Origin: Perna viridis
Taxonomy: Eukaryota
Assembly: GCA_037379345.1 (NCBI GenBank)
Contig: CM074513.1
Span: forward strand, 32,360,885 to 32,424,884
Direction of reading: 5' to 3'
Length of the DNA stretch: 64,000 nucleotides
In this document: positions 230 through 36,800 of the stretch, in pieces
Layout: each line of letters begins with the position of its first letter
How positions within the stretch are numbered: the stretch's first letter is position 1
Translations under genes and position numbers: made by a program
Notes under the pieces: generated by a model
What the model saw: only the letters and a program-made list of their open reading frames with translations
Database searches by the model: none
Told to the model about the DNA's origin: nothing

Positions 230-3200
230 GTAAGATAATTATAAACAACTTTTTAGCTCACCTAGCTAATGGCCATGTGAGCTATTGCCATCACCTGTGG
301 TCTGTTGTCATCTTCCATCATCATTAACATTTTTTCAAAACTCTTCTCTGACACTACTTGACCAATTGGAACCAAACTTGGTATGAATGTTCCTATGGGT
401 ATCTTGCATAGAACTTATGTGGGGATTTTTGATTCATTGAAAAACATGGCCTCTGTTACTAAAAATAGAACATAGGGGTCAGACAGTGGTTTTTCACATA
501 CATCTCCAAAATTGTACGGTTTAACCAAATTCTGACTGGGTAAAAGTGTTCAGCATGATTAAGATCTTTAGGTGTTCAAATTTTCATTTTAATCTGATAA
601 GCCATGTTGGCCTTATTACCCATTTTTGATGTTTTTTGCTATTTTTAATGTTTTTTGTTTCGAAAACTTGAGCAATTGGAACCAAATTTGGTATTAATAT
701 TCCTTAGGGTATTTTTCATAGAATGTACCGGTAGTGAATTTCGATCCATTGAAAAACTTGTTACTGTTTCTAAAAATAGTACAAAGGGGTCAGTCAGTTT
801 CTCATATATCTCCAAAATTTTTAGGTTTAGCCAGTCTTTTTATTGCTGAATTGATCCTTATTATAAGGCCTACAAAAGTCTTTAGGGATCAAAGTTATCA
901 GAGGACTCCTTGTAAGAGTTATTGCCCATGAAAGGTGAAAATTGTTTTTTTTTACAGTTTTTAGCCAAAAACTATGATAGGTAGAATGAAATTTGGAATT
1001 GCTGAAACGACCCTTATGATAAAGCTTTCAAAAGTTTACAAGAATCAAACTTGTTGGACGACTCCTTGTTAGAGCTATTGCCCTTGAAAGGCAAAAAATC
1101 ATGTTTTTAGCAGTTTTCAGCCAATATCTTGAAAACTATAATAGATAGAATGAAATTTTCAATTGATGAAATGATCTTTATGATAAGTCCTACTGAAGTC
1201 CTTCATTGTGTCAAAATTATCAGACAGAAAATTAATCAGTTGAGTGATTCAGACTCCTGGGAGTCTCTTGTATTTTTAAATTTGAAGATCATGTACAGAA
1301 ATTATAGAAAATTTCTAGTAGCCATGGGTTTTTAACATTTTTTGGTAAGAAACCCACATTGATTTTGTCTTTTTCATTTAAACACATGGTCTTGAATGCT
1401 CTGTTATGGAAACTCAATCAAACTGTATCAGTTTTATAATGGTATGTCATCGTTGTAATCAGATGGAAAAGCAAAATAGGAGGTGCACAATGGCATCTAT
1501 AATAAAGAATATATGAATGTTTCATTCAATTCCATTCAGGGGTTTTAGAGGGGTTGTGGATTAGAAGATGATCTTTCCTTGGTTGCCAATGACAAAGTCT
1601 ATCCTCCCCTTAAATCATGTAGATGAAAAAAAACAAAATAGGAGATGCACAATGACATCATCTGATAAAGAATGTGTGAAAATTTCTTCACATTCCATTC
1701 AGCGGTTTGAGAAGAGTTGTGGAATAGAACTGGTGACAGACTGACTGACAGATGAATAGAAGTTATTGCTTAGACCATATCTTTTATCCAGATATACTGA
1801 AATACTTAAAATGATGGTAAAAATCTTCAGACAGTTCAGTTAAAATATTTGGAGGTCAGGAATGGACTGAACACAAAATTATCTTTTAAAGAGGCATTTG
1901 GTTCGATATTAAAAAAATTTTTTTTTAGGTATTTTATTTTATTTTTATTATTCTTTTTGGTCAAGCATTCCTCAGACTTTTCATATACAGTAATTGTACT
2001 ACATCTACTGGGTATCAGCTGAAATCTAGTGTCTGTCTATTACTAATTAAGAAGATAGGATCATCAATGATCATATCAAGCTGCACCATGCAGAGCATTT
2101 GATAAAGTATGTTCTAAAAGTGAGCTTAACAAGCAAGTTTTACCAGTGCATTGTTTCTAGTTGATATAGCTTTGTTTACAATTACATTTTAAAGAGTCTA
2201 ATTCATTGATATATTCTATTCTAACTGTTTCATTTCTGTTCATTATTTCAGTTTATCCTCTGCATCAGGAAGAATAATAAAACTGTATACCAGAAAGTCC
2301 TGACTGGGAAAAAAGGGAAGCATCTGAAGTCATGGGAGTGGGGATTCCCTTTACATAATGCAACATATCATGCATTATACCCTCGGTCCTGGACTGTATA
2401 TAATATACCTGAATACAGCCTTAGATTAGTCTGTCGGCAAATATCACCTGTCTTTCCACATGATTATAAGGTACATCTTATCTGTCTTTCTTTGCTGCTA
2501 AATATGATAATTTTACTGTCAAGGTAGTTAAAATATAAAATTACTAGTCCCTGGTTTATTCTTAAACTGAAACATAGGAATGACAAAATGATCAGTTAGT
2601 AAATTTATTTTGAGTGGTCAATATTTTATGAAAACCTCTTGACTGGAAGCACCTTTCGTTTGTTCTTTGCAACATAACTTTTGTAAGTGCTGTCCTGAAA
2701 TCACAAACTTGAACTAGTCATAACTAGTGAAAAAATTACTTCCAAATAACTTTTCAAAAATATTATTCTTGATAGGAGAAATTATAAAAATCAATAGAAC
2801 TCATTCATTGCCCAATACATAGTGTATGATATAACTGTTTCAAGCAAATTATAATAAAAAAAAATTAAGGCTTCAGATATCTACAGTATTTATTGTGTCA
2901 CTTTAAGGTTTCTATTCTTCCCTGTCATTGTATAGTGTTCTTTGCTTTGTTTTTGTACCAGGACACAAGTTTTCCAATGGCTGTATTTGTATGGGATGTA
3001 GAGAACTTGGGACAGGAAGAATTAGATGTTAGCATCACTTTCACATTTAAAAATGGAAGAGGTGTAAAAGAGGACAGCTTTCCTGGCAACTGGAGTGAGC
3101 CATTTGAAAATGAAGCTGAAGGTCAAAAGGTTGCAGGGATGATGATTGGTCAAAATATACGAGATATGAAGTGCACTTATGGGATAGCTGGTGCCCTCAA

Positions 3201-6200
3201 GGTGTAAAATATATGTTTTGTTTTAAAGAATTCAATTATTTCTATCCTTTTTTATGTCTAACTTGGATTTACAGTAGCTTTATTTTGGTTTATTTGGTGC
3301 CTTGGATAAACCAAAAACACACCTAAATGAAATATACCAGATTTCCTTAACAATTTAACTGGAAGCAGATAGTTTTGGAAAAAAACAAATAGACAAAAAC
3401 TTAAAACACCATTCCTGTAAAATTTCCAAGAATATCCTGTTTTTTAATCATTTCTAAGTGATACTTTTTATCTACTCAAGGCACTGAGTTATTGTTGCCA
3501 AGCCACTAAATTGTCACCCAAAATAAATAGTTCTTCCAGTAAATTTAGGATTGGCAATGAAAAATTTAGTAATTTTCTAAATGTACCACCTGCCTTGTGT
3601 CATCATAACCTTCGATTTTCTAAACTTCATCAGAAACATTAATAGATAGAAATTAAACAAAGACTGTTATGCATTAAACTTAGGTTTTATGTCAATTATG
3701 AAATATCAGATTGATTTACCTATTATTCTATCTGTAATGATGATTTGTTTCACCATAGGATGGCATTGATGTGAGCACCAAGTCTCAATTCAATCCCAAG
3801 GGTACGGGACAAGAACTATGGGATGACCTATTGGAAGATGGAAAGCTTAAATCTGCTACAGGTACATTTTCATGGAACTTGTTTAAATTTAAAAGCAGAC
3901 ATTTTCAGTGGCATTTTAAACTTATACAAAAATCTTCAGAAATCTTTTGATAGTTCTTCCTTTTTATACCCCCTATCCAAAGGAGAGGGGGCATAGTATT
4001 TTATCCTTGTCTCTGTTTCCGTGTTGCACTGTTTCCTTCACAGTTTTCTCAGCAACTACTCATCGCATGGGTTTGAAATTTCAACACATTCTTCCTGTAG
4101 ATATGCCATATGGTGGGAGTCATTTTTGGAAAAAATTATACTACAACTTCCTGTTTACCGAGGACTGATTTTTTTTTTTATTATATTTTTGCAAGTTTAA
4201 ATTTTTGTCACACTTTTCTCAGCAACTACTCATCACAGCAGCTTGAAATTTTCCCCATTTACCCTGTGGGTATACCATATGGTACGATCCATTTTTGGAA
4301 AAATTCTACAACTTCCCGTTTACCGAGGACTTCATTTGTTTTCATTATATCATAATTGAAAGCGGGGCTATCACTTGTGAGCCATCCCTCACAGATTTCT
4401 TGTACACTTAGCATGTCTCCAGGGTAAAACTGTGTTGGCTTTTCATGCATTACATGTTGAACATAATTTATATAAATTATTAGAAAATATTTGAAAATTG
4501 TAATAAGCAAAATGAAGATGAGATTAAAGCTTTTTCTTTTCCTCCTATGTGGTTGGAAAGTATATGCCCTTTTGTTGGTCAAATTGTCTGTCCAAAATCA
4601 ATATCTTTGAAAAAAATATTACCGGTACAAATCATTATGCAATGGTTAGATGAACGTAGAAATTTTTCTTATATTGACTTGAATAAATGATACTGAAATT
4701 TCACATTTTTACCTTTCTGGCAAATTAATTACACATGTAAACTCTTTTTGTACACTTTTGTAGTTAATTACAAATATTATTTTGAAATTAACATTCTCAG
4801 CTTTACTTTGACTACTTTTGATCAACATACAAATTATGCACTTACAATACAATGATCTAGGTTCAGTGTGTTTTTGGTACTAAATACTTGTAGAAGGGTA
4901 ATTATTTAATTTGAATTGGTGAGATCTTTACTGTTTGAAGTTATGGACCTTTGCTTGTCAAAATTTTGGATTGGGGTATCACCAGATCAACTTAATAAAG
5001 TTTTGTAAAAATTTATACAGGATCAATATTTAACACTGAAACAGTTTTCCTTGTATGACTAAGAAATGAGTGAAGTAAAAAGTTGAGAAATCATGATATA
5101 AGTTGCAAAAGGTTTTTTTTAAACTTTAGATTTATATGATTTTCTTAGTTATTTAAAACCAAGTTGCAGAAGGTACATTTTGATAGCTTAACTTAAGCAT
5201 GGAATGTCAACAATATGAATGAAGAGTTTAAGATTGTAATTTAGGGATATTTCTCTCTGAACCTGGTTTCCCTGAACATTATACAACAGTAATTTTCAGT
5301 TTACCGGATTCAGTGAAATGTATATAGTTGCTTTCCTGCAAAATTTATTTTTGTATTTCCTCTATAAAGGGATTTTTGCTTCTGGAGAAAGATAGTTGTT
5401 CTGCCTGGTTTCAAAACCTTTTATGCATAGCTAGGCAACATTAAGATTTATATCACACTTCTACTTCATAACTTAAAAAAAATGTTAAGGTGGAGGGGTT
5501 AAAGGTTTTATTCTAGAAATTACTTTTGAATAAAATGCCTTATTGGAAGTTCATGTTAAATATGTGATGGTGTTTTGTCCTTAAGTGACATTTATAACTT
5601 TGTATTTACTTATTCTATTCACAGAGGGGTATGTAAGTTTCGAAACACGACTCTGTGATTTCATGAGAATTGGTCCTCATCTACCATTCAAATGCATGGA
5701 GATTCATCATTTACATAGTATTTAGTTCAATATGAAAAGCAATTTATCTTTTTTTGTAAAAAAGATTGATAAAAAGTGACAAATATCTAGTTTTACGGGA
5801 TAAAAATGTTAAGAAAAGCATAAAATAGAAGATTTTGCATTGTGATGCAGTGTTTCGATTTCCTGCAAGTAAACAATATAATGCAGATCGGTTTTTGGAT
5901 TTCAAAAGGTTTTACATTGGAAATTCTGGAACTATAAAGATACTTACCAACCCTGTATGTAAACATTGTTACTGAATAGATGTGACTTACAAAGTACATT
6001 TTTATACATGAAAATCAATTTTGATGGTTTTGTCAAAAGTAATTTAAAGAAACATACATTCATGGCTTTCTTAAGAAAATCAAATATTTTATGGAAATTT
6101 TACATTTCATGAGGATTTTGAATTTGTGGTTCGACCGAATCACCCCAAAAAACCTACAAACTAGGTACCTCACAAACTTTATTTTTTTCGCATTGCTGTT

Positions 6201-9200
6201 TATTTGTTTAGAATGAGATGCATTTTGTTTGTGTATGTATAACAGTGCTAACTTCCTTTACAATGTTTTCATTTTTTGCTCTGCATCAAAACGGTTTGAA
6301 ATCATAGCAGTTTGAAATTTTATCACAAATATTGAATAGAAAAGGTAAAGAAATGAGGTTGATGACAAAAGTTTTTATTTTATATTGTAGATCATAATAA
6401 AGATAGTCAGGTTGACACTCCCTTTCATGTAATAACACTCCGAGCTTTAATGAGCATTCTACAGTTTCTACTAAATCTCATCCTACCGTGCAAAGGTATG
6501 GTGTCTATCTAACATAATAACTTTCACTGTTGTTCATTTATAGAAGAGTTTTTACACCAACTTTTAGCATGTAGGTTGCTATGATTATTTTTCAATACCT
6601 AGCTTTATATTTTGAATTTTTTATTTAATGCAACATGTGTCTTGGGATTATTTAGAACTTTTTGATCAAACTGATTATACTGTGCATGTATATTCAGGAA
6701 TGATTTTTTTCAACTTTTTAGTGGAATTCCGCAAATTGAAATCCGGATTTTACTGTTACGATTCTTTTTTTTCTGTTTATTTATCTCTGATTTTACCAAT
6801 TTTTGCTTTGTTTGACTTCATCATAAAATCATCCCTGTATATTGTTCCTATAAATCATTTTATAGTACATTCAAAATAGTTCATAATTGATAATATGATA
6901 ATTAATTGAAAAAATGTGAATAACTAAAATATGATCATGAGTGCTGAAGAATGTCCAGATTTTAACATGTGGGGGAACTTGTTCCTAGCACAACTTAAAT
7001 CTTCAAGTGTTCTTGGCAAACATTATCAAATTATAAAAACAATTATTATCCTATTTGTTATATACATATATATATATGTTCTCCATATTTTTCTCTATTT
7101 TCAATATGAATTTGTGATCAGTAGATTGGCAGCAGAAGGTCTGAGAGCGAAATTAATTGCACAGGGAACTAACTTATGAAAAAAAATCACTGCCATCTAT
7201 ATGATAACTAGTGTTACTTCACTTCTCATTTTAGTTTTCATGAAACACCGGTAATCATAAAACATATTCTGCAGCTACAAGCTTATATAATGTATTATTA
7301 ATTCGAAGAAAAGTTCCTGTGATAAAAAAAAATATTTTTAATTTGGTTTTACATGCTTGCAATATTACCATATACAAGGTCATTTTAATGACAATTCGTT
7401 ACACTTGGTTATGGTAGGTTTTCTTATGTTTACATATGGGTAGCATTTGATATACTGGTACAAATTAACATATGATTAAGTTGCATGCCTCATTTGTCTT
7501 TATGTCTTTTGATTGAATCTTAATGAAGAAATGCATTGAAAATTACCCATTATACTTAACTAGGAAGTAGAATGTGTAAGTACAAGTCTCCATTAAATAT
7601 TTTCTACTTGTATGTACTAAATCTAGGTGAAACAGTTTAGTGGCACAGTCTTTGCAATTAGAACAAGATGAACAATCTTCACTTAGAAATTTGAGTTAAA
7701 ATTTTCAATTGATCATGAGAACTTGTTCCATTTATGAAACGAAAATGTACATTGTTTTGGATCATATGAATAGAGGTTCTGATTTTAAAAACTGTTTCTG
7801 TAATTTTCATATTTTAGTATGGCTGTGCTTATCAGTTTTTACTTCCCAAAACTGTTGTTCTATAACTTTGTGTGTCTAAATGACATTGTGAACTAATTGG
7901 AAGGGGATCAAGATTGTGTTAGTTTCACTAATATTTAGTTGTTTTTCATGTGTATTTATCTAGACTTGTAGTCAGAATCATAATGCAGAATTAATGGTTT
8001 AAACAGTGTGTCATCCATTGCTTATAAAATTGTTGACTCTTAAAACTTTATTTTCAACTGCTAATTGATAAAAGTGAACACACATGTATGTTCAGATACC
8101 ATCAATCAATTCTTAAGTATAAAATTTTCTTGGTGACTTAATTTGTACACATATTTTTTTCTCCTCATGAATAGCTTTGTGGAAAACTATAGTTACTGCA
8201 TCATCCCATTTATTACAATGTTAGTTTTTCTCTGTAATTTTGAAAAAAAGCCCCATAAGAAATTAGTATTAAATTTTCACACCAGTTTTATAAACTAGTA
8301 CCTGTTTTAGAATCCAACCCATTGTTTCAGTGTATATTGTTTGCTTATCTTGATTATTATATCACACAGAGAAAAGTGCAGCCACCACCAAAGGAACAGA
8401 GCTAGGTACTGCTGTGTGCTTGTTTACAACTGTCAAACCTGGAGAGAAGAAAGATTTAGAGTTCACCCTGACATGGGATATGCCTGTTATACACTTTAAG
8501 GCTAGAAAACATAAATACCTAAAGTAAGGGTGTAAAAGATGGTAGTGACTAGTTGTTACTGAAATTTTACATATTTTGGCAATTGGTGGTTTTAAAACAT
8601 TTTTCCAAGTATTTAAATTTGCTTTATGTTGAAACTTATCATAAGCAAAGTGCTTAATTTGCATATTCATAGGTACTTATTTTTGCAACTGATTACTGAT
8701 TGTGAATTTGGGCAAATAAATACACCATGGAAATGAGTGCAATTATATTAATGGATGTTATGGTACATGTAATATTACAAGTCTTCTATAACAAATCAAC
8801 TACATTTTTAATCATAATTTTTTTTACATAGCAATAAATTATTTTGAATTTCAGATAGTATGGTGTGCATTTTGTGTATAGATCAGGAGGCAGAAAAATA
8901 TCTTATTAGATTTTGAATTCAAAATACTAAATGCACCATACTGTTCAATTTTTTCTATCATTGTGACAGCTTTATCATTCTGAGAGTTGTTTATGCATGA
9001 ATGTCTACATCTATCATTGTTTTTATGTGTTTTATTTTTTGTTGTCTGTAGGCGATATGCCAGATGGTTTGGTAGTACTGGTGATTCATGCCCAAGAATG
9101 TGTAGTTATGCATTGAACAATTATTCAGTGTGGGAACAGAAGATTGAAGAGTGGCAAAATCCTATCCTAAACAATCAGTAAGCCTTTATATGTATATCTA

Positions 9201-12200
9201 TTACTCATGATTGTCTACATTTTAATGCCTTGTTACATTTGGAATCAGAAGAGACCAGTTTGACAATTTCACCAATCAAAATAATGAAATTCAAATATTT
9301 TTGGTGAACATGTTATTAACCTGTGTGTCATTAAAGCATGAACAATACAGTTTTTCATCTTGATCATTTATTTGAACTTGAGTACTGTGAAAGTACTATT
9401 GGGTACCAATTTTCGTGGTTTTTTTGTGGGTAGGTCAAACCACAAAATTTGGTTCCAACGAATAGTAGATTCCCATTGATGTGTATACTGAAGGAGTAAT
9501 CAAGGGAACCAAGGTTATAGTGGTAATCAAAAGAATGTAATCCAGGTACAAAGACCAGACATGGGAAACAGACATACACAACTAAGAACATGAAGTAACT
9601 AAAATCATACATACAAAGTAACAAAAGCAAATGAGCAACTCAGACTCCACTAATAAACCTAGGAGCATGGACCAGGTGCACTGGTAGGATAAGCGTCCTC
9701 TGTTTTTCTAGAAACACCCGCCGAATTGCTCATAAAAAGTCATATCCAGGGTAGACAAAGGAGGAAAGGAAAATTATGACACGAAAACTTCAAAACCATG
9801 AATTCAAAAACCCATGGACTTGTGTTTCTTCCCTGATCCACAAAAATTGGTATCCACAAATTAAAGTACTGTCACATTATAACTTCTGTTACATTTTTTT
9901 TTAAGATACATTGTACATTGAATTTAAAAACAAGTCTTTTTAAGTATTTGTGGGCTAATGTTCAGAAGTTAATATTGTTTTATTTTCAGAAATCTACCAG
10001 CATGGTACAAATCTGCTCTTTTTAATGAGCTTTATTTTGTGAGTGATAGTGGTTCTGTATGGCTAGATTTAGCTGAAGAGAAAGATGGAAAATATGTTAG
10101 AAAGATTAATGAAAGTGATCCAAAAGTTATTCAGGAGTTTGGAAAGTTTGGCTATCTTGAAGGTATCGTAATGATGAATTTGGGATGGGTATCTTTCCTT
10201 CACTATTGGGATAATCATATTAAAAAAAAAGAAAATCTAAATTAATATTGTACATGTACAGGTTGGAGGAGTAGTTACTTAAATAATTAAGGTTTGTCTG
10301 CTTGAAATTTTTAAAAGTCAGAGAGTTAATAGAAACTCCTAAATAAATAATCCTACTTTGTCAAATCACAAGAAGCCTCTGATAGACAGTAGAGGAATTT
10401 CTATTTATTCTACATGTAGTGCAATTTGACAATTCCTTAGAAAATGAACCATTATCATTTATCAAAGAAATGTAATACTACAGAAAACATATTTTATATA
10501 GCTCTTTTTATTTATTCTCCTTCAGTAATGAGTGGTTTAAATTATTTCTCCATGCTGTATGGTGAGAATTAAAGATTGCATGTTGAAAATCTTAATTTTC
10601 CAATCTCAGGTTAACAAGTTAGGTTGACATGGGTTGATTGCTGAAGATAAACATTTTGATTGTTTCAGGACATGAATACAGAATGATTAACACATATGAT
10701 GTCCATCACTATGCATCCTATGCTTTTATCATGTTATGGCCAAATATACAGATGTCTATACAGTATGATATGGGTAGGTTTCTGTTGTTCCGTAATGGAC
10801 TCTGAATCTGTCTTGCTGCATTATGTCAAAGTCTAAAGGACTGAAGAAAGAAATTGAGGTGTTGGTAGTTCAACTTAAATGAAGCCCAAGTTTCCATGTT
10901 TTGATATGCAAATAGATTATCAACACGGACTGTCTCAAACACCAGGAAGATAGATTATCAACACGGACTGTCTCTAACACCAGGAAGATAAGCTTTCATA
11001 TCTTAAATTTAATGCAGAATTTTGATTTTAAAAGTCAAAGAACACAACTTAGTTCAGTTGTGAAAGTTCGATTGGCTGACAGATTTCTTGTTGTTTCTAC
11101 TTATTATTTTCTGCTCCTATTGATTGACTTGCACTGCAGAAGTATTGGAAAGACATCTGTTTTAGTGTACTAAAGAAATTTTTTACTAGTTATAGCTTAA
11201 TGACACTTTAAATTGTAAATAAGGAAATCCTATATAGATGTGCATGTTATAAGGTTTTACATGTTTTGATGATACTTTCAACAAAATAAGTAATGTTTAT
11301 AGCTTGGTAGAGAGATGATATGACTTTCAATTTATCAAATTGTGTGATTCCAAGAGGTGCAGATGGTATTCTTTAATTGAGCTTACTCATAACAAAATAG
11401 ATGTATATAATTTTGAGATCTAATGTCTTAACAAGGGTAATGATTAAGGAAGATGCAAGCTGTCCTTTGATTTGTATACATTTTTCTACAAAAACTTCAT
11501 AGAAGTATTTTTTGCGACAAAATGAAAAAAGTGTTGGGGGCATTAAGCTATTGATATTGCTTAAAAATATCAACTTTGTTGTAATAACATGAAAGTTGTT
11601 TATAACAAAGTAAAATATATTAATATAAGGGAAAGATGATTATTTGTGGCATTAGTTCACTGTAATGATGTCATAATGGTTCACTAATTTTACATCATTT
11701 AGTGAAAACTGCTGAGAATTGTAAATTTTGTTGTTTTTCTGACATATTTTCATCCACACCCAAGAAATAACTTTAAATTTTTACATATGATAAACTATGT
11801 AATAATGAGTGTAGTCACTAAATATGATGAAGTTGTTTCTTGGGTGTGGACACCATTTCCTTGTCAAAAATATGACCAGAAAGTGACCAAAATGTACAAA
11901 GTTTGACAGTATATCTGAATATTGGTAAATTTTGAGTAATTTTTCATTCCTTTCAATGCAAGAATTATCAGAAGTCTTTATGTTTTCTCATTTGTGATGG
12001 ATTCAAGTATCTCAATTCACTATTAAATTATTTAACACTTTATGATTTATTTTCAGTTGAATTTTTGGCCAAAAAGACCCTTTATTGTCCCTTCTCCTTT
12101 ATTAGGACTTAGGTATAAAAAAAACTTATATATGGTGTAAAATTATAACAGAAAAAAACCTATATATGGTGTAAAATTATAAAAGTCATATATCAAATAC

Positions 12201-15200
12201 CTATATGTTTTGTTATTGTAGCTTCGTCAACGATGTCTGAAGATACTACGCCACTAGTTTACTGTATGGAGGGTAATACTGGTATCTACAAAACAAAGAA
12301 TGCTGTACCTCATGATCTAGGCGATCCAGGTATCTATTGGGCACATACTTCTTATTATTTTTCCATAGGTGTACATGCATGTATCTTTTTACCGACATTT
12401 TTTATTGCAGCTCTTTCCATATCATTGATCTGGGTATAAGGGACCACTCAAAATGTCCATATCAAAATTTTCACACTTCTGTTAGAACATGTTGGTAGGA
12501 AGTGTAGTTACATTTATTTTCTGTCTGTAACAGCTAAACCGAGAGGAAATTGGCATAATGTCTCCTTCACCAGCAAATAATCCCAGAAACTGTCATTCGG
12601 TCATTACTCTCCAGTGTGTTTTTCTTCAATGATTTTTTTTTCAATTATTCTAAAGATTTATAGCTTCAGATACATTTCACTTTCATTTACTAACTTTTTC
12701 TACAACCTGTATTAGTTAGATTATATTGTATGTGTAGTACTACTTTGTTGTTTGGCACAAGGTTCATTTATAATGTTCGTCAAACTGACAGAAATGTTTA
12801 TAAATTGTTTGAGTACAAGTATATATTTCTTATATAAAAGGAAGGGTATGTTGACTTTATACCATTTCCAAATGTAGGGTTTCATTAATAGTTGGAAAGA
12901 ATATTTGCATAAAGAAAAAAATGAAATGAATTGAAGTTTGTAACTACTAAATGTTTATAAAATTAATATCCCAATTAAACATTTGATACTACAAAACACA
13001 ATAATTATGTACCTGTACAATAAGCTGCATGAAGTATAGGATAAGAATGTGTTGTAGTAAAACAAGCAGAGAGGAAAGAATGAAGTTTGCATGTCAAATA
13101 TCGTATTTCTAATTTAAATAGCTATACAAGTGTCACATATATAACGATACATATGAATAATGTCAGTGACACACTGTGTAGCACTATATTTTTGACAGCA
13201 TCATTTTGTTTTTGCTGGTATCAAAGTTTATGAAATAAACAGTACATTATATGAATAATTCATTAAAGAATAAATTTCAGTATTTCTGTTTTTAAGATGT
13301 GATGCCTTGTTATATTTTCTATATGCAAGTTTTGTGTTTCCTTTTACAGAGGATGAGCCATGGGACAAAGTTAATGCTTACATTGTCCACCCTACTGATG
13401 ATTGGAAAGATCTCAATTTAAAATTCATACTTCAAACCTACAGAGATTATAGCCATCTGAAAGATGTACAGTATCTTAAAGACATGTACCCTGTTTGTCA
13501 GGTAAGGCATTACATTTGTTTGTAGATGTTGATAACATACCATGTAGCAGGAATTTTCAGAGGGTGCTGTCTCTTTAGTATTCTTTCTGAACATGCCAAA
13601 TTGAATTTTGCAAAATATTTCTTCTGGGCTTCCATACTAAGTGCACCAATTAGCATCCGTCAAAATTTCTTGTGTACTTTTTTGCCTCAAAACTGCCAAA
13701 TTTACATCAGCCAAAATACCCTGCCATATGGTACTAGATGATAGTGTACTAGATGGAAATGCATTATACATGTGTATTACATTTACCATATCAGTTTCTT
13801 AAGGTGTTGTGCTAAGTTAATTTATGATCTTAATTTACAGAATTAAAGATTTAAAAAAACTTGTTCATATAGTGGGATCTTCTATTGTTTTTGGAACAAA
13901 ATTATATATATATCATTTCCTAGAACACAAAACTTCTGTGAAGAAAGTTACTGTCTTTCCTTTATTACCTCCTGGTTACAAAGCTGTTCTAAAACCATGT
14001 TGTTCTTTTTTTTTAAATTGTGTTAAAAGTTTGCACTGTTGTTATACTGGTATTCAGGGTCTTATGGAGCATGCCAGATGGTGAGTCAAAAGTATGGAGA
14101 CTTTGTAAAAAAATTCTTCTTTAAAAAAAATTTACACGTAAAAATGTTGTTTGTTTGATATAATCAGGCTGTAATGGAGCATGCCAGACAGTGGGATAAA
14201 GATGGCGATGGTCTGATAGAGAATGGAGGGTTTGCTGATCAAACATTTGATGCTTGGACCATGACAGGGGTTAGGTATGTAAGAATAAACTTTGATTTAG
14301 AGTTTTGGAAATTTGGTCTCAGTAATCATCATTGGTTTAGTTAGTATGAAAATACAAGAAAAAAATATGGTTTTACAAACAAACAAAAAAAAACTAATTT
14401 TATTTTGAGACACTCACTTTTTGTTTACCAAATTTAACTTTTTATTTTGAAATTACTTCATTGCTGCATGTATGGTAATATCTTTATCAAGTAGTGGTCA
14501 TTTAGGACATATGCTGAAAAGTAATATGACACATATGTAGAACCACTGGTAGTAGGAATCTGATGAATTCTACTCATTTTGACACCATTGAAAACTGATT
14601 TTGCCAAGTATTTGAAATGCATTGAAAATATTGTAAAAAATGGAGAATTTATGAAGACATAAACAATAATTGAGAATATTTAGTATTTAACCTTCATGTC
14701 CTTTATATTTAGATTTACATAATCTGTAAGAAATGGCTAAATATAACACTCCCAAACCATGCTAATCACCTGCCAAAATGGATGCTGTTATATTTCCAGT
14801 GCTTACTGTGGTGGCTTGTGGTTAGCAGCTTTGAAGATGTATGTAGAAATCAGTAAAATCATTGGTAACACTGAGGAAATGAACAAATATACAGAAATAC
14901 TGGATAGGGGCAAACAGGCTTTTGATGCTAAATTATGGAATGGTTAGTAAGACATGTATGCACTATATTTCATGTATGGATTTTAAAATGTACCACAGGC
15001 ATCTATGTATTATAAAGAAAATATCTTTTTATGTATGCTGGTTTAAAGTGTGTTTTAAAATAGGTAGAAGTATTAAGATATTTTATATTTCAAATCATAC
15101 TTATGTTCATTGTATATTTACTCTTCTATGTACATTAGAATTTAAATGCATGCCCTTTAAGCATTTTAACATTTTTTGCAGGAAGTTATTATAACTATGA

Positions 15201-17424
15201 TTCCAGCACAACAAGTGGCCATGATGACAGTGTAATGGCTGACCAGCTAGCAGGACATTGGTTTCTCAGAGCTTCTGGCATGGAAGATTCTTCTGTACAT
15301 ATTTCTCCTTTTGCCTTGAGCACATATAACAATAATTTGTGTATTATTTTCCACTTGTATAACTTTTCAATGTGATAACTCACTACAAGTAAAATATAAT
15401 TAGTGTAATGCATGAGAATTATTTGCAGTAACATACATTAAAATATACTATAACAGCAGGGCCTAATCTACACATAGATGACAAAGAGAAGTTCTAGTAA
15501 ACTCTGTTTGAAAAATAATAAGATTGACAATTTTGTCTGTGTACTTTATTACAAATACTTTCCCTGTCTAAAACAAATAGGACAGTTGAGCACAAACAAG
15601 GAGAAGTTTTTCTCATTTCTTCCTTTAGATTAAGCCCTGGTTTTGTGTATAAAACTTGTTAAATTTTACCATTTTAAATTGGTATTAACAGGGAAATATA
15701 AAAATATACAACTTCCTTGGGACAGAAAAATACATTCATTTGCCATGCCTTGTACGCATGTACTTCAGGCATAAACATACATATAGATACCAATTCATTT
15801 CAGAATAATGTTTTACCTGTATTAACAAGTAAATATAACACAGGTTTCTGTGAGCTTATTGTCTTCTCTGTTATATATATTACATTTTTTTTCAGATCTT
15901 TCCACCAACTCATGTCACAACAGCTCTTAAAACAATATTTAAGAACAATGTTATGGGTATAGAGAATGGTAACATGGGAGCCGTTAATGGAACAAGGCCT
16001 GATGGGAAGATAGATATCAGTAGTGTGCAGAGTGAGGAATTCTGGGTAGGAGTCACTTACGCCCTTGCTGCTAGTATGATTCAGGAGGTAAGTGGTTCTT
16101 ATAATAATTTATATGAGACAGGATCTACTTCTAATGTTCAGGAAGAAGGTTTATACATTACACTAAATTTAGGAACAGTTGAAACTGATCCTGGTACCAT
16201 CCATCTTTGGTTAGACATCATATAATTCTATTTGTTTTGTGAATTATTTTTTGTGCAACTAACTTTGGGTTATGAAAAGTTTCCAAATCTCTTCATACGG
16301 ACTTTTTTTATATATTATTCACATTTATATTTGAATGCATTTAAATTTCAAAAATGCAATATTTGCTTGCAAACTACAGAAATTAGTAACTTCAAAGGAT
16401 AAATGGTTAAAGTTTGCATGTGTAGCAGGTGCAATTACTGCTTATGATTCAGCAGACTCAGATTACAATTCATATCAGCTTTAGATTGACTATAAGAGGG
16501 ATGACGAATGCAAAGCTTTATAGCGCAATGTGGGTCGAATGTAAAGGAATCAATACAATTAGCAATACATTTTATTTCCCAAGTACAAAATACTTTATTG
16601 CATACAGAAGTCATTAAAATGGAGCAATTTCATTTCAAGTGGGGTAGGTATGTGGCTAGGCTATTCGCAATGTTGGACTAGTAATTAGTCCTCAGACAAT
16701 TATGAAAAGTTGGCAAAGTTATCTTATTCAAATCTATAAATATTCATTGATGAGGTGAATAATAAATCATAATACTTCAATGTCTGAGAAAATCTGTTAT
16801 AAAATATATCAATCTGGATAAAGTTTATTTTCATTTTCAGTATCTTTAGATTATCTAAATAAATTATCAATGACTTAAATCTCAAAACACAACAAAATTA
16901 ATTAAACTGAAATAAGTTAATCAAGGGACATAAATCAAGCAGTTCTGCCACACATGATTGAATGTTGTTGATTTTCAAAGGGTTAGTAGAGAAAAAAATG
17001 AAAATTTCTACCATTAATTTCCTTTTGGGAGGGTAATAGGGAATTATTTTAGGTTTGGTTACTTGAAAAATTTTCACTATCATGTGAATGATATTTTATA
17101 TACTAACTGGAATCTTTGAAATGTGAAGCACTGCATCAAGTCAATACACAATTGCTTTCTTTATTAACATTAGAAAAAAAGGTTATCTGAAATATAAACA
17201 AAGATATCTCTTTTTATTTCCATTAGGGTATGGTAGAGGAAGGATTTAAGACAGCCTGGGGAGCATATCACACATGTTGGGAGTGGTATGGATTACAATT
17301 CCAGACTCCAGAAGCATACATGGTGAACAAACACTATAGATCTCTAGGTTACATGAGACCATTATGTATATGGGCCATGCAATGGGCTCTAGAAAAATTC
17401 CATCCAAAAATTATGAAATCTTAA
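114..17424 (+). CDS. GBA2: Non-lysosomal glucosylceramidase (GH116), 15 coding exons visible, 5'-partial; join(114-229,2252-2470,2962-3201,3759-3861,8370-8523,9052-9177,9990-10162,10669-10773,12222-12329,13350-13501,14168-14274,14800-14942,15182-15294,15896-16087,17227-17424)
   Basis: All exons have AG/GT boundaries and compatible phases. They join into a 2249-nt stop-free frame with GH116 motifs [101 protein letters not shown] and FQTPEAY...[10 protein letters not shown]. Confidence 0.96.
250..1271 (+). mobile_element. Non-autonomous Helentron-like (HINE/DINE-1-type) element in GBA2 intron
   Basis: 5' TTTTTAGCTCACC...GTGAGCTA short inverted repeat, internal ~310-bp tandem units, 3' GAGTGATTC + AGACTCCTGGGAGTCT palindrome + CTTGT; homologous to 29275-30803. 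Confidence 0.8.
1381..1755 (-). mobile_element. Degenerate Helentron-like fragment with ~150-bp internal repeat and GACT/GACA microsatellite
   Basis: aaaataggagRtgcacaatgRcatc repeated at ~1473 and ~1635; gacagactgactgacag at ~1735-1751. Confidence 0.5.
2252..2470 (+). CDS. GBA2: GBA2 exon (FILCIRK...[10 protein letters not shown]...[12 protein letters not shown])
   Basis: tttcag / gtacat; phase 0-0; conserved motif. Confidence 0.95.
2962..3201 (+). CDS. GBA2: GBA2 exon ([15 protein letters not shown]...GALK)
   Basis: taccag / gtgtaa; lies within ORF 2893-3207. Confidence 0.92.
3759..3861 (+). CDS. GBA2: GBA2 exon ([30 protein letters not shown])
   Basis: ccatag / gtacat; phase 0-1; FNP.G.G..LW.DL..DG.L motif. 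Confidence 0.93.
3961..4403 (+). mobile_element. Helentron-like non-autonomous element with two ~170-bp internal units
   Basis: 5' TTTTTATACCCCCT...AGGGGGCATA hairpin; ttttctcagcaactactcatc at ~4044 and ~4214; 3' GCGGGGCTATC...GTGAG...CTCAC...TCTTGT. Confidence 0.65.
8370..8523 (+). CDS. GBA2: GBA2 exon ([16 protein letters not shown]...[14 protein letters not shown])
   Basis: acacag / gtaagg; phase 1-2; WDMP motif. Confidence 0.92.
9052..9177 (+). CDS. GBA2: GBA2 exon (RYARWFG...[13 protein letters not shown])
   Basis: ctgtag / gtaagc; phase 2-2. Confidence 0.94.
9383..9879. mobile_element. Tc1/mariner-type MITE interrupted by a Penelope-like 3' end
   Basis: Imperfect TIRs TACTGTGAAAGTACT ... 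AGTACTGTCACATTA. Confidence 0.6.
9494..9782 (-). mobile_element. 3' terminal fragment of Naiad-type Penelope-like element
   Basis: Reverse complement matches ~55490-55770 and ~53390-53960, including the ...TTGGTTCCCTTGATTACTC terminus. Confidence 0.85.
9990..10162 (+). CDS. GBA2: GBA2 exon ([15 protein letters not shown]...FGKFGYLE); contains the predicted nucleophile Glu codon at 10159-10161
   Basis: tttcag / gtatcg; YLEG motif of GH116. Confidence 0.95.
10669..10773 (+). CDS. GBA2: GBA2 exon ([16 protein letters not shown]...IQYDM)
   Basis: tttcag / gtaggt; phase 1-1. Confidence 0.95.
10912..10990. repeat. ~39-bp tandem duplication
   Basis: atagattatcaacacggactgtctcWaacaccaggaag x2. Confidence 0.9.
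12222..12329 (+). CDS. GBA2: GBA2 exon (...[13 protein letters not shown])
   Basis: ttgtag / gtatct; PHDLG motif. Confidence 0.94.
13350..13501 (+). CDS. GBA2: GBA2 exon ([10 protein letters not shown]...[16 protein letters not shown])
   Basis: ttacag / gtaagg. Confidence 0.95.
13538..13733. mobile_element. ~196-bp Tc1/mariner-type MITE
   Basis: TIRs TACCATGTAGCAGGAATTTT / AAAATACCCTGCCATATGGTA with TA ends. Confidence 0.7.
14168..14274 (+). CDS. GBA2: GBA2 exon ([30 protein letters not shown]); contains the predicted acid/base Asp codon at 14237-14239
   Basis: aatcag / gtatgt; DQT(F/Y)D motif. Confidence 0.95.
14800..14942 (+). CDS. GBA2: GBA2 exon ([11 protein letters not shown]...LWN)
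   Basis: ttccag / gttagt. Confidence 0.95.
15182..15294 (+). CDS. GBA2: GBA2 exon (SYYNYDSS...[13 protein letters not shown])
   Basis: ttgcag / gtacat. Confidence 0.92.
15896..16087 (+). CDS. GBA2: GBA2 exon (IFPP...[10 protein letters not shown]...[20 protein letters not shown])
   Basis: tttcag / gtaagt. Confidence 0.95.
17227..17424 (+). CDS. GBA2: GBA2 terminal coding exon (GMVEEGF...FQTPEAY...[14 protein letters not shown]...KS*)
   Basis: cattag acceptor; TAA at 17422-17424. Confidence 0.95.
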
Positions 17425-27989: not shown

Positions 27990-28693
27990 ACCTACAAAGC
28001 GGGAAAATTGTAGCTTTAGCGAATGATTTTCACTTAAATTTTCGGATCGAGTTGCTAAATTAAATAGTTAAGAAATAAGGAATCATTACGTCTTCATTTT
28101 TCACCGTTCAGGTAAAAACAAAAACAAAAAAAAAAACAGCTGATTATTAGTCGTCATATAACGGTTCTTACTTTGGACCTTATCTTATTCAAAATAAGCC
28201 GTCTCTGCGAAATTACGCTTTTCATATCGGAACTTGGTTTTACGTCATACATCAACCAATACAATAATTGCTCCCGATTTTAGCAGTAAGTGGATCTAAT
28301 CTGCTGACTGAACACTCTACAATCACTCTGAAATCTAGAAATCAATTGAGAAAATTGGCAATAAAATATTGTCCTTTAGAAATAGGATCTTATCGAGAGT
28401 AATTTTTAATCATAACACGTTATTTAGAATTCCAATTATGGACTACCGATATTTTTTAATCTACAAAACAGGAAATGGTCGTTAATGGGGTGTATTATTT
28501 GATAAAAAATGTGCTCATATTACTTCAATACGGAGCACTGGTATTCACACTGTATATGACCCTTGGCTGTTTAATGTTGGCTTTGTTTTGGGCAGTCATA
28601 TATTGTCTTTTTGAATTAATGTAAAGTTGAAGAACAGTACGTTTAGCTTGCTCTTGGTCTAAATTTGTATTAGTTTTACTATGTATTCTCCAG

Positions 28694-29201
28694 CCCCGTG
28701 CAGGTCCGGGTGTTAAAAGAATAGGCCTGCAGCAGCGCTAAGCTTGTCGTATAAGGCGACTAAATAGTGCTCAGAAACCTAGCCGGGGGTTAGGCGCTCT
28801 GCCCACAGAGCAACTGGAATGTGTGCCCCAGGTGGTGGAATGAGGTACCCCTGGCGTGTTACATGCTAGGGTTGTCAGGCTATAATACGGAAAACCTAAC
28901 CGCAAACCATAGTGGTGCACCGTGTTGGGAAAGATGCCACGTTCCTCGCACGTTAAAGAACCCTGCTGTGGTATTCGATAGGAGTAGGAACCTTTGCGCT
29001 CCGCCACAGGAGGCTAAATTGCCCGACCTTACCCATCCCCCCTTTTTCCAGTGGCAATCAAAATTTGTCGACCCTATTATCGTTGTGTCCCATCTTTTTT
29101 TTTTCATTTCATGTTCATTTTATCATCCATTTCATGTTCATCGTCTGAATATAGCTGAAATATTGCTGCTCGGACGTTAAACCCCAACAAACAAACAAAC
29201 A
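28694..29201 (+). mobile_element. 508-bp SINE-like non-autonomous retroelement with structured non-tRNA head, Nin/Deu-like core and (CAAA)n tail
   Basis: TCCAG TSD at 28689-28693 and 29202-29206; GCACGTTAAAGAACCC core hallmark; tail GGACGTTAAACCCC(AACA)n; GC-rich relative to flanks. Confidence 0.85.
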
Positions 29202-29274: not shown

Positions 29275-30803
29275 TTTTTAGCTCACCTGGCCGGAGGTGT
29301 TATCATGCATACCCGTGCTTGTTACTTTTGCTTGTGCTGTAATCCGCGATGGATATACACTTGTATTTTTTTAAAGTACTGCTTGAAGAAAATTGTTAAA
29401 TATCTTGAATGTGTGGTTCTACTAACGGATTTTGTTTCCTTTATACATTTTTGTACACTTTTAAACTTTTATGATGCAGTATCATCTCCTCTGAAACTAC
29501 TTGACAAATTAGAACCAAACCGTGTATGAATGTTTTTAGGGGATTCTGCATAGAACTGCTGTGGGGAATTCTGATCTGTCGAAAAAACATGGCCACCGTT
29601 ACTAAAAATAGAACATAGGGGTCAGACAGAAATTCTTCGCATGTATCTCCAAAACCGTTAGGTTTACCCAAATTCAGACTGGAGTAAAAGTGTTCAGCAC
29701 GGTGATATCTATCTGTGGTCAAATTGTCGTTTTAATCTGCTATAAGTCATATTGGAGTTATTGCCCCTTTTCGACGTTTTTTTCCCTATTTTTAATGTTA
29801 TTTCTTTCAAAAGTCTTCTCTGAAACTACTGGACCAATCAAAATCAAACTTGGTATGATTATTTCTTAGGATGCTCTGCAAAGAAATGATGTGGGGTTAT
29901 TTGATCTGTCGAAAAACATGGCCGACGTTACTAAAAATGTAACATAGGGGTCAGACAGAAGTTTTTCGCATATATCTCCGAAACTGTTTGGTTTAGCAAA
30001 ATTCTGACATAGGATTAAAGTGTTCAGAATGATGAAATCTATCTGTGGTCAACTTTTCATTTAATCTGTTAAGCCATGTTGGAGTTATTGCCCTTTTTCG
30101 ACGTTTTTTTTCCATATTTTTAATGTTATTTCTTTCAAATATCGTCTCCTCTGAACCTACTGGACCAATCAGAATCAAACAGTATGAATGTTCCTTCGGA
30201 TGTTCAGCATAGAAATGAAGTGGGGATTTTTGATCTGTCGAAAAACATTGCCGCCGTTACTAAAAATAGGACATAGGAGTCAGACATAAGTTTTTCGCAT
30301 ATATCTCCAAAATCGTTAGGTATAACCAGATTGTATTAATGTTGATGTTCTTCATTATAAGGTTTACAAAAGTCAAAGTTGTCGGATTACTTCTTTCTAG
30401 AGTTTTTGGCCTTGAAAGGTGAAAAATGTGTGTGTGTGTGTTTTTTTTTAATTTTCAGCCAATATCTTGAAAACTGTGATTAATAGAAAGAAACTTTAAA
30501 TTGCTGAAATGATCCTTATGATAAGGCCTACAAAACGTTTGTGGAGATACAAGTTGTTTGACGGCTTTGTTAGAGTAATTGCCCTTAGCAGGCGCAAATG
30601 ATGTTTTAGCAGTTTTCAGCCAATATCTTGAAAATTATAATAGATATATAGGAAGAAACTTTCAATTGATGATATGATCCTTCTGATAAGTCCTACCAAA
30701 ATCTTCATTAAATCAAAATTGTGGGACAACTTGTTTGAGTTATTGCCCTTGAAAGGCAACAAATTAACCAAGTGAGCGATTCAGGCATCTGGGAGCCTCT
30801 TGT
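29275..30803 (+). mobile_element. Non-autonomous Helentron-like (HINE) element with ~330-bp internal tandem units
   Basis: TTTTTAGCTCACCTGG start; aaaaacatKgccNNcgttactaaaaat at ~29582, ~29912 and ~30241; end GTGAGCGATTCAGGC...GGGAGCCTCTTGT. Confidence 0.85.
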
Positions 30804-34665: not shown

Positions 34666-35913
34666 TCATGGCATTAATTTATCATTTTCGGTCTCCCTGA
34701 GATGTGTATACAGTCTCATTTGGTCTTTAGCCAGTGTCACAATACCAGAAAGATCTATTCGATCGTCGGGGATACGAAGATACCGACATTTGTACATATC
34801 TTTCCACAACTCTCCCAACTTTTTCTGGTATGCCTCGTCGTTTGGAAATGCTCTCATTTCCAGTGGGGTTCTATGTGGAAGTAGCTTTTTTCTCTTTTTA
34901 GAATTAGCACTCTGCACTCGTTCCTCTAAATCTGGAGGCCCATCCAATGCATTTGAAACATTTATTATCGGTATCGCTTCTTCGTCTAAACGTGCTATTG
35001 GATTATCTTTAAGATAGTCTCTCAGTCTACCAAGGAAATCCTTGGTCTTAGATTCAATGTCTTGATATGTCACTTTTTCTTCTTCTAGAAGTTCCTGTCT
35101 ACGTTCCTCGAAAAGATCTTCACCCAAATTACTCTCAATATCATCTGACATAAACGGAGTTTTTATATCACTTTGTGGCGGATTACTTCTCTGTTCCTTC
35201 TCTGTCGCGGAATGAGATGAGTAAGGTGAGTGAGATGGCATAGAAGATTTTCCGCGCTGAGATGATTTAGTCTCACTCCTCGACACAGATTTTTCTCTCA
35301 CAATCGGATTTGCGGTTATTGCACGTTCTATTTTATTGTTTTCATTGTTTTCCCGATTCCTGTCCGGAACACATGTATGATTAGCAACACTAATCGGTCT
35401 CATTGCAGGACCACTTATGGAGTTTCTTCGTTCGCCGTTTGCGTCGTCTGGTATATCAATAAATACACCAGTGACGGAATTACTCCTTTTAAGAGTAAAG
35501 GGTACAGTTTGATGCCTTGTAAACGAAATTTCTGAATGTTCGCGTGACGGAAGTGCTGGTAATGTAGTTAATGGTCTAGGTGTTGACTGAAGTTTAAGTC
35601 TCTTAGCTGCCGCTGCTATTTTTAAAGCACTGCCAAGATTGACGGTATTGCTAGTGTTCTTTAATTTGCCGTCTGCTTCAAGTTGTTTTAAATTTACGAT
35701 TTCATCAGTTGTGAGATGAGATTTTATTCTTGAAACTTTGTCTTTTAATCTTTTATATGACAGCTTTATTCCTCTGTGGTCTAGGTTGATGAGTTTCATT
35801 GAGTATGTCTTTTCTAAATCCAATGTTTGCATATTCTTTTCCAGGCACCGTTTCTCCTTTACATTGTGGGCCATTGCCGTTACCTCTTTGTCTATTTTCC
35901 TCCGTCCTGGCAT
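34666..35913 (-). CDS. Uncharacterised 415-aa protein: N-terminal coiled coil, S/R-rich disordered middle, C-terminal LWKDMYKCRYLR motif (possibly CCDC190-like)
   Basis: 1248-bp open ORF with AAAATG start context; splice acceptor ttgcag at 35980-35985; minus-strand AATAAA at 34583-34588. Confidence 0.85.
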   Translation of the reverse strand: MPGRRKIDKEVTAMAHNVKEKRCLEKNMQTLDLEKTYSMKLINLDHRGIKLSYKRLKDKVSRIKSHLTTDEIVNLKQLEADGKLKNTSNTVNLGSALKIAAAAKRLKLQSTPRPLTTLPALPSREHSEISFTRHQTVPFTLKRSNSVTGVFIDIPDDANGERRNSISGPAMRPISVANHTCVPDRNRENNENNKIERAITANPIVREKSVSRSETKSSQRGKSSMPSHSPYSSHSATEKEQRSNPPQSDIKTPFMSDDIESNLGEDLFEERRQELLEEEKVTYQDIESKTKDFLGRLRDYLKDNPIARLDEEAIPIINVSNALDGPPDLEERVQSANSKKRKKLLPHRTPLEMRAFPNDEAYQKKLGELWKDMYKCRYLRIPDDRIDLSGIVTLAKDQMRLYTHLRETENDKLMP

Positions 35914-36800
35914 TTTGTTTGACAGTAAGATTGTATTAAATTTACATGTATATTAGAATTTCGTGTCACTTTATATTACCTGCAAATATACATTGAAGAT
36001 ATATTGACAACAGCGTATAGTATCATTACCTAGCATATGACATTCAGGTAACCATAATTTATCAAGAAAATAAAATCTTTTAAATCTGACACATATATAG
36101 AAAGAGTTTCTATATAATTACTTATTGTCCTTGCTCTAGAAAATTCCTTTAACAAATTTGAGAAAGATTCATTATGTCCCAACAAATAGTTAAATCCTAC
36201 GGATAGATTAGTGTGTCAGAACGGAAATATAGTTATTATTGGAACATATTGATCGATATGTGTCCCCTCTCGTGTAGATATGGACAATAAACACATTTCA
36301 AAATCATTATTACTTTCTCTTTTCTCTTGAGTGTGTGTCTTCAAAGGCTTTAACCGAAATTAACCCCTGTTTAAATAGTCCATGGTGCATTCTAGTCGAT
36401 ACAAATCAAACAGCCTAGATTTATCTCCGAGTGTGAATTTTAATATATGCCTCTTTTAGATAATAATGGGGTAATCCATTCCTTTATAGAAAATTCAATA
36501 ATTATTTTCATTTTGAACTTATACTTAAGCTAGACAAGTTCGTTTTGAAGTGCAACATCGTTAGTTACTAGATTATTAAGAAGTGGTGTTTTCTTGGTTT
36601 CTGTTGGTGGTTGACTAAATATTTATATAGATTATGAACTGGAATAACCCTCTCAAACTATTAAAGTGAAAGTGCTAACAGAACAGTCAACTTAAATAAA
36701 AGTTCATTCGAAACATTGTAAGTTTCTGATTACTTAGGCAAATCTGACTTGTAAGACCACGTCTTTAATTGAGTTGTTTGTAATGTCTGTTATGTTCGAA

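Follow-up and report, generated by a model that had tools for sequence, protein, structure and literature searches.

The stretch of Perna viridis DNA analysed here (64,000 nt, hereafter the window) contains the exons of a GH116 glucosylceramidase gene of the GBA2 type (2225-16222, forward strand), as well as two open reading frames without a Pfam match, one of 428 aa on the reverse strand (34669-35952) and one of 482 aa on the forward strand (56733-58178), the latter starting with an N-terminal stretch that resembles a signal peptide. Two repeat arrays were also found, at 330-1200 and at 29473-30770, the second being diverged and composed of units of about 329 nt and 160 nt. Directly ahead of this second array lies a 509-nt copy of a non-autonomous retroelement on the forward strand (28693-29201), referred to below as LP-SINE, which consists of a structured head, a body with a Deu/Nin-like core and a tail of the Nimb type.

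Searches of the 723-Mb P. viridis genome retrieved 4,712 exact matches to a 25-nt piece of the head and 10,488 to a 25-nt piece of the tail, with none to either piece when reversed; the family has more than 10,000 copies in this genome. Among the first 30 copies anchored by their tails, 23 reached element position 1-4 and the other seven ended internally; flanks were shared by three copies of the first set and by two of the second. Copies were often inserted within other copies (L022, L045, L025, L047, L397 and L274), and the sites used recurred close to the tail and to the Deu-like core. Four heads with a period of 504 nt were present at G000:C1:9836030-9837566, and head-to-tail junctions likewise occurred in DNA contigs.

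The 5' end of the family is sharp, lying 0-2 nt upstream of the first stem of the head and almost without extra upstream letters. In 52 unbiased heads, a set from which the anchor copies selected by BLAST were excluded, G and C preceded the CCCG of that stem in 36 cases (about 70% of full-length copies with the G). Twenty of the 52 had (AAAC)n ends and target site duplications (TSDs) of at least 8 nt, the family's TSDs being mostly 10-14 nt, and the letters between TSD and CCCG in these 20 were GC (12), C (4) or other (4). Loose ends of DNA contigs numbered 279 before 28693, 157 before 28692 and 120 before 28694. Since these ends agree with the heads reading G-C-CCCG, the usual start of the family is G28693 rather than C28694. 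The first-pass annotation had placed the start of the element exactly after its TSD, which needs correction on two counts, as the usual start lies one base earlier and the copy in the window is flanked by a duplication of only TCCA(G), 4-5 nt in length (28689-28693, repeated at 29202-06), with none of 6 nt or more; this duplication is too short to be trusted. The first base was a purine in the families seen: G in that of P. viridis, G in 11 of the 13 copies of one metagenome group and A in 9 of the 16 copies of another.

Behind the head, a Deu/Nin-like body segment (28918-28990, edges approximate; core 28948-63) was matched by eye to BivaMD-SINE1 rows in the available part of the supplement of PMC4824008. 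A Meta domain had initially been assumed in the body; this was dropped, the match being to the Deu part of BivaMD-SINE1. The tail (29140-29201), with an AATATA hexamer at 29148-53 and an (AAAC)n end, is of the type common to BivaMD, BivaMeta and BivaV SINEs (matched to BivaMD-SINE1 by eye), and this tail type of bivalve SINEs has been assigned to Nimb LINEs in the accessible portion of PMC11481361.

The head begins with G28693 and C28694, followed by four stems, all of which are present in the sequence as first annotated. Stem 1 pairs CCCG (28695-98) with CGGG (28707-10) and encloses the 5' strand of stem 2, TGCAGGTC (28699-706), which pairs as a pseudoknot with GGCCTGCA (28724-31). The apical loop of 8-9 nt is almost wholly taken up by stem 2. 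Because the T28699-A28731 pair varies among sequences (U-A in 7, U-G in 4 and unpaired in 2 of 13), stem 2 may instead have 7 bp and a 1-nt loop. The linker between the two stems (28711-28723), which likely lies along stem 1, comprises a variable part of 5-180 nt among 35 parsed copies, and then AGAATA (28718-23), invariant in 13 of 13 sequences. Seven repeat families in animal DNA from metagenomes (L089, L100, L157, L161, L163, L164 and L207) had 128-180 nt in the linker with both stems kept. The second domain (28734-28771) is formed by an outer stem of AGCGCTA (28734-40) and TAGTGCT (28765-71), an internal loop, an inner stem of GTCG (28746-49) and CGAC (28757-60) and a 7-nt loop, then YAA. 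With a pattern of U-A-N-R-A-G-G, in which U1 and A5 are present, position 3 is free and position 4 was a purine in 119 of 123 copies, this loop is predicted to fit the T-loop as described in the available part of PMC12397905. Many unpaired bases of the head were conserved. A further hairpin behind the head (28778-28794, family base at 28790 being C) is specific to the family and was not kept in distant homologues.

The nested folding energy of the head was unremarkable (z of -1.56, 13 of 200 shuffles as good, pseudoknots being outside the folding model), and support for the fold therefore rests on covariation. In 13 sequences with an 8-nt loop, a set from which seven with 9-nt loops were excluded, 96.5% of 143 cells were paired and 40 had changed on both sides, compared with 12.8 +/- 2.6 after shuffling (0 of 500 shuffles as good); slid controls in the same set were 33-46% paired. 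Seven of the eight pairs of stem 2, whose covariation extends over animals and viruses, had changed on both sides, as had one pair of stem 1, which was paired in 100% of the 13 sequences. When 18 hand-picked sequences including those with 9-nt loops were considered, stem 2 strands from the same sequence formed 7.0 of 8 pairs and crossed strands 5.0, a difference reached by none of 100,000 permutations. The middle pair of the outer stem read T-A in 63 of 123 metagenome copies and A-T in another 42; beneath the hairpin, T.T was seen in 96 copies and G-C in 19. These counts reflect inherited subfamily changes and not events. The GTCG/CGAC stem was invariant (19 of 19), and the search patterns had partly fixed it. 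Compensatory changes were strong in stem 2, limited to one pair in stem 1 and present in the outer stem, with the inner stem lacking such support. On this strong covariation, we take the pseudoknot to be a real conserved RNA fold.

The suggestion that the head is not of Pol III origin was borne out. No tRNA gene was detected in the window, no A or B box was matched in the head, and no Rfam family matched the head at E-values up to 10, three sub-threshold matches falling elsewhere in the 3 kb searched. Internal runs of at least four T in the element also count against Pol III transcription. Nor did any Rfam ribozyme match the head or seven viral loci, although the blank on the head is weak evidence, because Rfam was equally blind to an HDV-like LINE head from P. 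viridis used as a control. A relaxed descriptor of the HDV-like ribozyme (nested double pseudoknot P1-P2-P3-L3-P4 with a catalytic C in J4/2) parsed this control 30 times (1 of 100 shuffles as good) and the SINE head on neither strand, and gave no parse in the homologous head of LINE L221, described below, or in six viral copies. The hammerhead ribozyme has a CUGANGA core, which was absent from the head, as was an Rfam match to this class. Twister, twister-sister, pistol and hatchet were likewise without an Rfam match, and their helix order did not fit the head; crude patterns for twister and pistol gave loose short matches that were not counted. The head accordingly remains as first described in fitting none of the HDV, hammerhead, twister and pistol consensus folds.

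HDV-like ribozymes and Pr77 at the 5' ends of LINEs (R2, RTE and L1Tc/Ingi) nonetheless share with the head the 5'-terminal slot, the sharp 5' end and the swapping between LINE clades, whereas the head lacks their nested double pseudoknot. Class 3 plant-virus xrRNAs, in the available parts of PMC12397905 and PMC6299227, resemble it in the pairing of an apical loop with a 3' strand, in a conserved motif at the linker end, in the T-loop and in their placement in viral 3' UTRs. In contrast to these xrRNAs, in which a T-loop in the apical loop docks a J1/2 bulge, the head has its T-loop-like hairpin downstream of the knot, a stem 1 without such a bulge and a linker that tolerates up to 180 nt, and it is found in retroelements; its exonuclease resistance is only predicted.

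The element as a whole is a new family of a published type. LP ('LINE promoter') SINEs of snails and bivalves were reported by Matetovici et al. 2016 (PMC4758252), where the first ~70 bp were matched to the 5' ends of Nimb-17_LMi, I-3_DR and RTE-9_CPB; the heads of LP SINEs, those of the scallop MESC SINEs among them, are LINE-derived stretches of ~70 nt that take the place of a tRNA. In the available part of that source the head was read as a promoter and a parallel drawn to Pr77 of L1Tc, which is promoter and ribozyme at once, promoter activity being proposed there and not assayed; its text does not contain the word 'pseudoknot', presents no fold and reports no viral copies. Supplementary rows of the same paper for scallop and Pan_3 contain, by eye, an identical hairpin string and the AGAAT linker, and in the scallop head other letters build an equivalent knot. 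The P. viridis family accordingly combines a ~70-nt head homologous to Nimb/RTE LP 5' ends (scallop and Pan_3 by eye, and LINE L221), no tRNA or 5S origin of that head and, at the level of the family, TSDs of variable size with a tandem-repeat 3' end. The Saccostrea LP family (PMC4758252, available part) likewise has TSDs, a tandem-repeat end, the AATATA hexamer and a partial Nin/Deu body; a point of difference from published LP SINEs is that the P. viridis body between head and Deu-like core was matched to no known part. BivaMD-SINE1, a tRNA-headed Meta/Deu SINE of bivalves (PMC4824008, available part), has the Deu-like core and tail in common with LP-SINE, yet LP-SINE has no tRNA head or A and B boxes and no Meta domain was seen, so that the order of tRNA-derived head and Meta domain typical of MetaSINEs and tRNA SINEs is not found. 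No tRNA-headed sibling occurred among the 30 tail-anchored loci. A possible link to AviRTE gave no string match in the accessible supplements of PMC5786205 or PMC4844689. Searches of the literature for LP terms turned up PMC4758252 alone, and those for the knotted head found no paper, the motif strings occurring in main texts only as unrelated primers; the head is apparently an undescribed RNA fold.

A scan of metagenomes retrieved at least 122 stretches with the motif, nearly all of them repeats in animal-like DNA. Of 12 matches in prokaryotic assemblies, five appeared to represent the motif in eukaryote-like DNA (judged partly by eye) and seven were chance-like. Eukaryotic-looking DNA was seen inside prokaryotic assemblies at L208, L210, L211 and L216, and an animal-type LINE (L218/L221, G001:C4), also among these matches, lay within a scaffold labelled as the genome of a gill symbiont. 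This LINE is intact and bears the motif at its 5' end, with a zinc-knuckle ORF1 and an ORF2 of 1,238 aa encoding endonuclease, reverse transcriptase (RT) and RNase H. Together with the scallop and Pan_3 LP SINEs and the animal-like metagenome repeats, it bears out the earlier suggestion that similar heads occur in invertebrate retroelements and, with the available part of PMC4758252, agrees with the proposed origin of the head in the 5' end of an I/Nimb-type LINE.

A LINE family of P. viridis has an ORF1 about 42% identical to that of L221 and a 5' UTR that aligns to the L221 5' UTR over the stretch between the motif and the start codon, but carries an HDV-like head where L221 has the motif. 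Because the 5' UTR of this sister LINE is homologous behind a different, HDV-parsing head, the motif, itself not HDV-like, appears to occupy the slot of a probable 5'-end-forming ribozyme. An intact 6.08-kb LINE with two ORFs (endonuclease, RT and RNase H) was identified at G000:C8:23537700, with an HDV-like head (L351:201-290) undetected by Rfam; its many copies are about 99% identical, and the family is likely an active one of the Nimb/I group. A cap-derived G at position +1 of the SINE was considered and not favoured, given the A in 9 of 16 copies of one metagenome group, although 9 of 25 HDV-headed LINE copies likewise have a G in front, which keeps a cap origin conceivable. Within the P. 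viridis genome, none of 30 ORF1 loci belonged to a LINE with the motif as its head, the 30 loci examined of 35 retrieved with variant patterns were all SINE copies, and 30 loci of ORF2 ends represented one LINE family without a motif head. The tail of the local LINE had a weak likeness to that of the SINE, with 8 of 1000 shuffles as good. Since no motif-headed LINE was found in the genome and this likeness is weak, the LINE is a candidate partner of the SINE, not a proven one.

Viral genomes were scanned with a 19-nt hairpin pattern that required neither AGAATA nor the knot. Ten viral contigs matched, of which eight had AGAATA and the knot upstream and two, both from phages, had neither; the eight represent seven viruses (L062 and L068 being the same virus). 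Five of the seven encode RdRp or RNA-virus capsid domains, one (L061) is a 6.1-kb unclassified viral contig without a Pfam match, and one (L063) is a 212-kb DNA virus in which the motif is intergenic, about 140 nt from each neighbour, these being an NAD ligase gene and an ORF without a Pfam match. Identification of L063 as a large insect DNA virus with an HDV-like ribozyme was set aside, as no paper was found and the flanking genes were unsupportive. In all six small contigs the motif was on the coding strand, 26-144 nt past the last stop codon, with the end of the hairpin 14-119 nt from the end of the contig, though these contigs may be incomplete. Viral copies were diverged yet fully paired. 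L061 and L067 each carried two tandem copies, and those of L061 showed compensatory changes between the two. Looser scans gave no new contig with a convincing knot and only re-found the second L067 copy; their additional matches look like chance.

The reading we favour, at a probability of about 0.4, is that the head works as RNA to define where the 5' end of the retroelement falls, likely through arrest of 5'-3' exonucleases (Xrn1/Xrn2) at stem 1, a proposal drawn from sequence comparison. LP-SINE copies would be transcribed by Pol II within longer RNAs, decay from upstream would halt at the fold to leave a unit-length RNA, and the protein of a Nimb/I LINE would bind the tail and copy back through the knot from its 3' side; in viruses, the RNA that the fold protects would be a short piece from the 3' end. 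According to the available parts of the literature, xrRNAs are located in viral 3' UTRs (PMC12397905, PMC6299227) and in those of class 3 a pseudoknot occurs together with a T-loop and a motif conserved in the linker (PMC12397905). Exonuclease arrest would fit the position behind the last viral gene, the tandem copies and the class 3-like knot and T-loop parts. The covariation of stem 2, the start of 23 of 30 tail-anchored copies at element position 1-4, the different 5'-end module in the same slot of the sister LINE and the T runs that count against Pol III also speak for this reading. Several observations weaken it: the topology is unlike that of any described xrRNA class, a tight ring is hard to reconcile with a linker of 5-180 nt in amplified families, viral RNAs protected in this way would be short (though the contigs may be incomplete), the purine at the first base fits a transcription start equally well, and the genome yielded neither a motif-headed LINE nor more than a weak likeness between LINE and SINE tails. 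That the element ends sharply where stem 1 begins would follow alike from exonuclease arrest, cleavage at that edge or a fixed start.

It is possible, though we think it unlikely, that the fold serves instead as a handle by which the ribosome, an initiation factor or some other host protein takes hold, aiding translation or stability of LINE and viral RNAs in the manner of a 3' translation enhancer and bringing SINE RNA to nascent LINE protein. The fold occupies much of very short viral 3' UTRs, its T-loop and pseudoknot resemble a tRNA elbow, the invariant GTCG/CGAC stem suggests sequence read-out, LINE 5' structures can be IRES-like (reviewed in PMC6765202, available part) and the motif also lies between genes of the DNA virus. 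Binding by itself, however, would leave the family ends 0-2 nt before stem 1 unexplained.

HDV-like ribozymes free elements from read-through transcripts, and a new self-cleaving class with its cut site on the 5' side of stem 1 would do the same for LP-SINE. The slot shared with the HDV-like head of the sister LINE, the coincidence of the sharp 5' end with the fold boundary, the many conserved unpaired bases, the tolerance of a long linker and the occurrence of ribozymes in the UTRs of linear RNA viruses (PMC13725137, available part) all accord with cleavage. We nevertheless consider it doubtful, because the motif is sense-oriented near viral 3' ends, where a cut at its 5' edge would sever the last 100-250 nt of the genome; the viral ribozymes described in the same source are moreover mostly upstream of ORFs or paired, and the head lacks both HDV parses and Rfam ribozyme matches.

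The published LP reading, in which the head acts mainly as DNA, as an internal Pol II promoter, is consistent with its 5'-terminal position in LINEs and SINEs and the purine at +1, and a dual role is conceivable, as for Pr77 of L1Tc, a promoter that is also a ribozyme. A promoter alone is improbable, however, since base-pair covariation and upkeep in RNA viruses, which have no DNA stage, require a function at the level of RNA. Host SINE RNA that was captured neutrally by viruses, or joined to viral contigs during assembly, would also account for the viral copies and make them uninformative on function. This is very improbable, for although the SINE is very abundant in contigs from runs guessed to be RNA, the viral context is identical in two records (L062 and L068), the copies are diverged but fully paired and the tandem copies compensate.

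Taken more broadly, we lean slightly towards regarding the LP head as an undescribed class of functional RNA, either exonuclease-blocking or self-cleaving, that passes among SINEs, the LINEs of the Nimb/I and RTE groups, RNA viruses and one large DNA virus, can be exchanged for HDV-like ribozymes and allows thousands of SINE copies to arise with no Pol III promoter. SINEs as a rule begin with a Pol III RNA; LP-SINEs do not, and since 2016 a promoter role has simply been presumed for their head. The covariation and the viral copies point to selection on it as RNA. Should the head stop Xrn1, it would count as a cellular xrRNA with a new fold, carried by retroelements; should it cleave, as a new ribozyme class. 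Either activity would explain the exact 5' ends of promoter-poor retroelements and would make the head a module common to animal retroelements and viruses.
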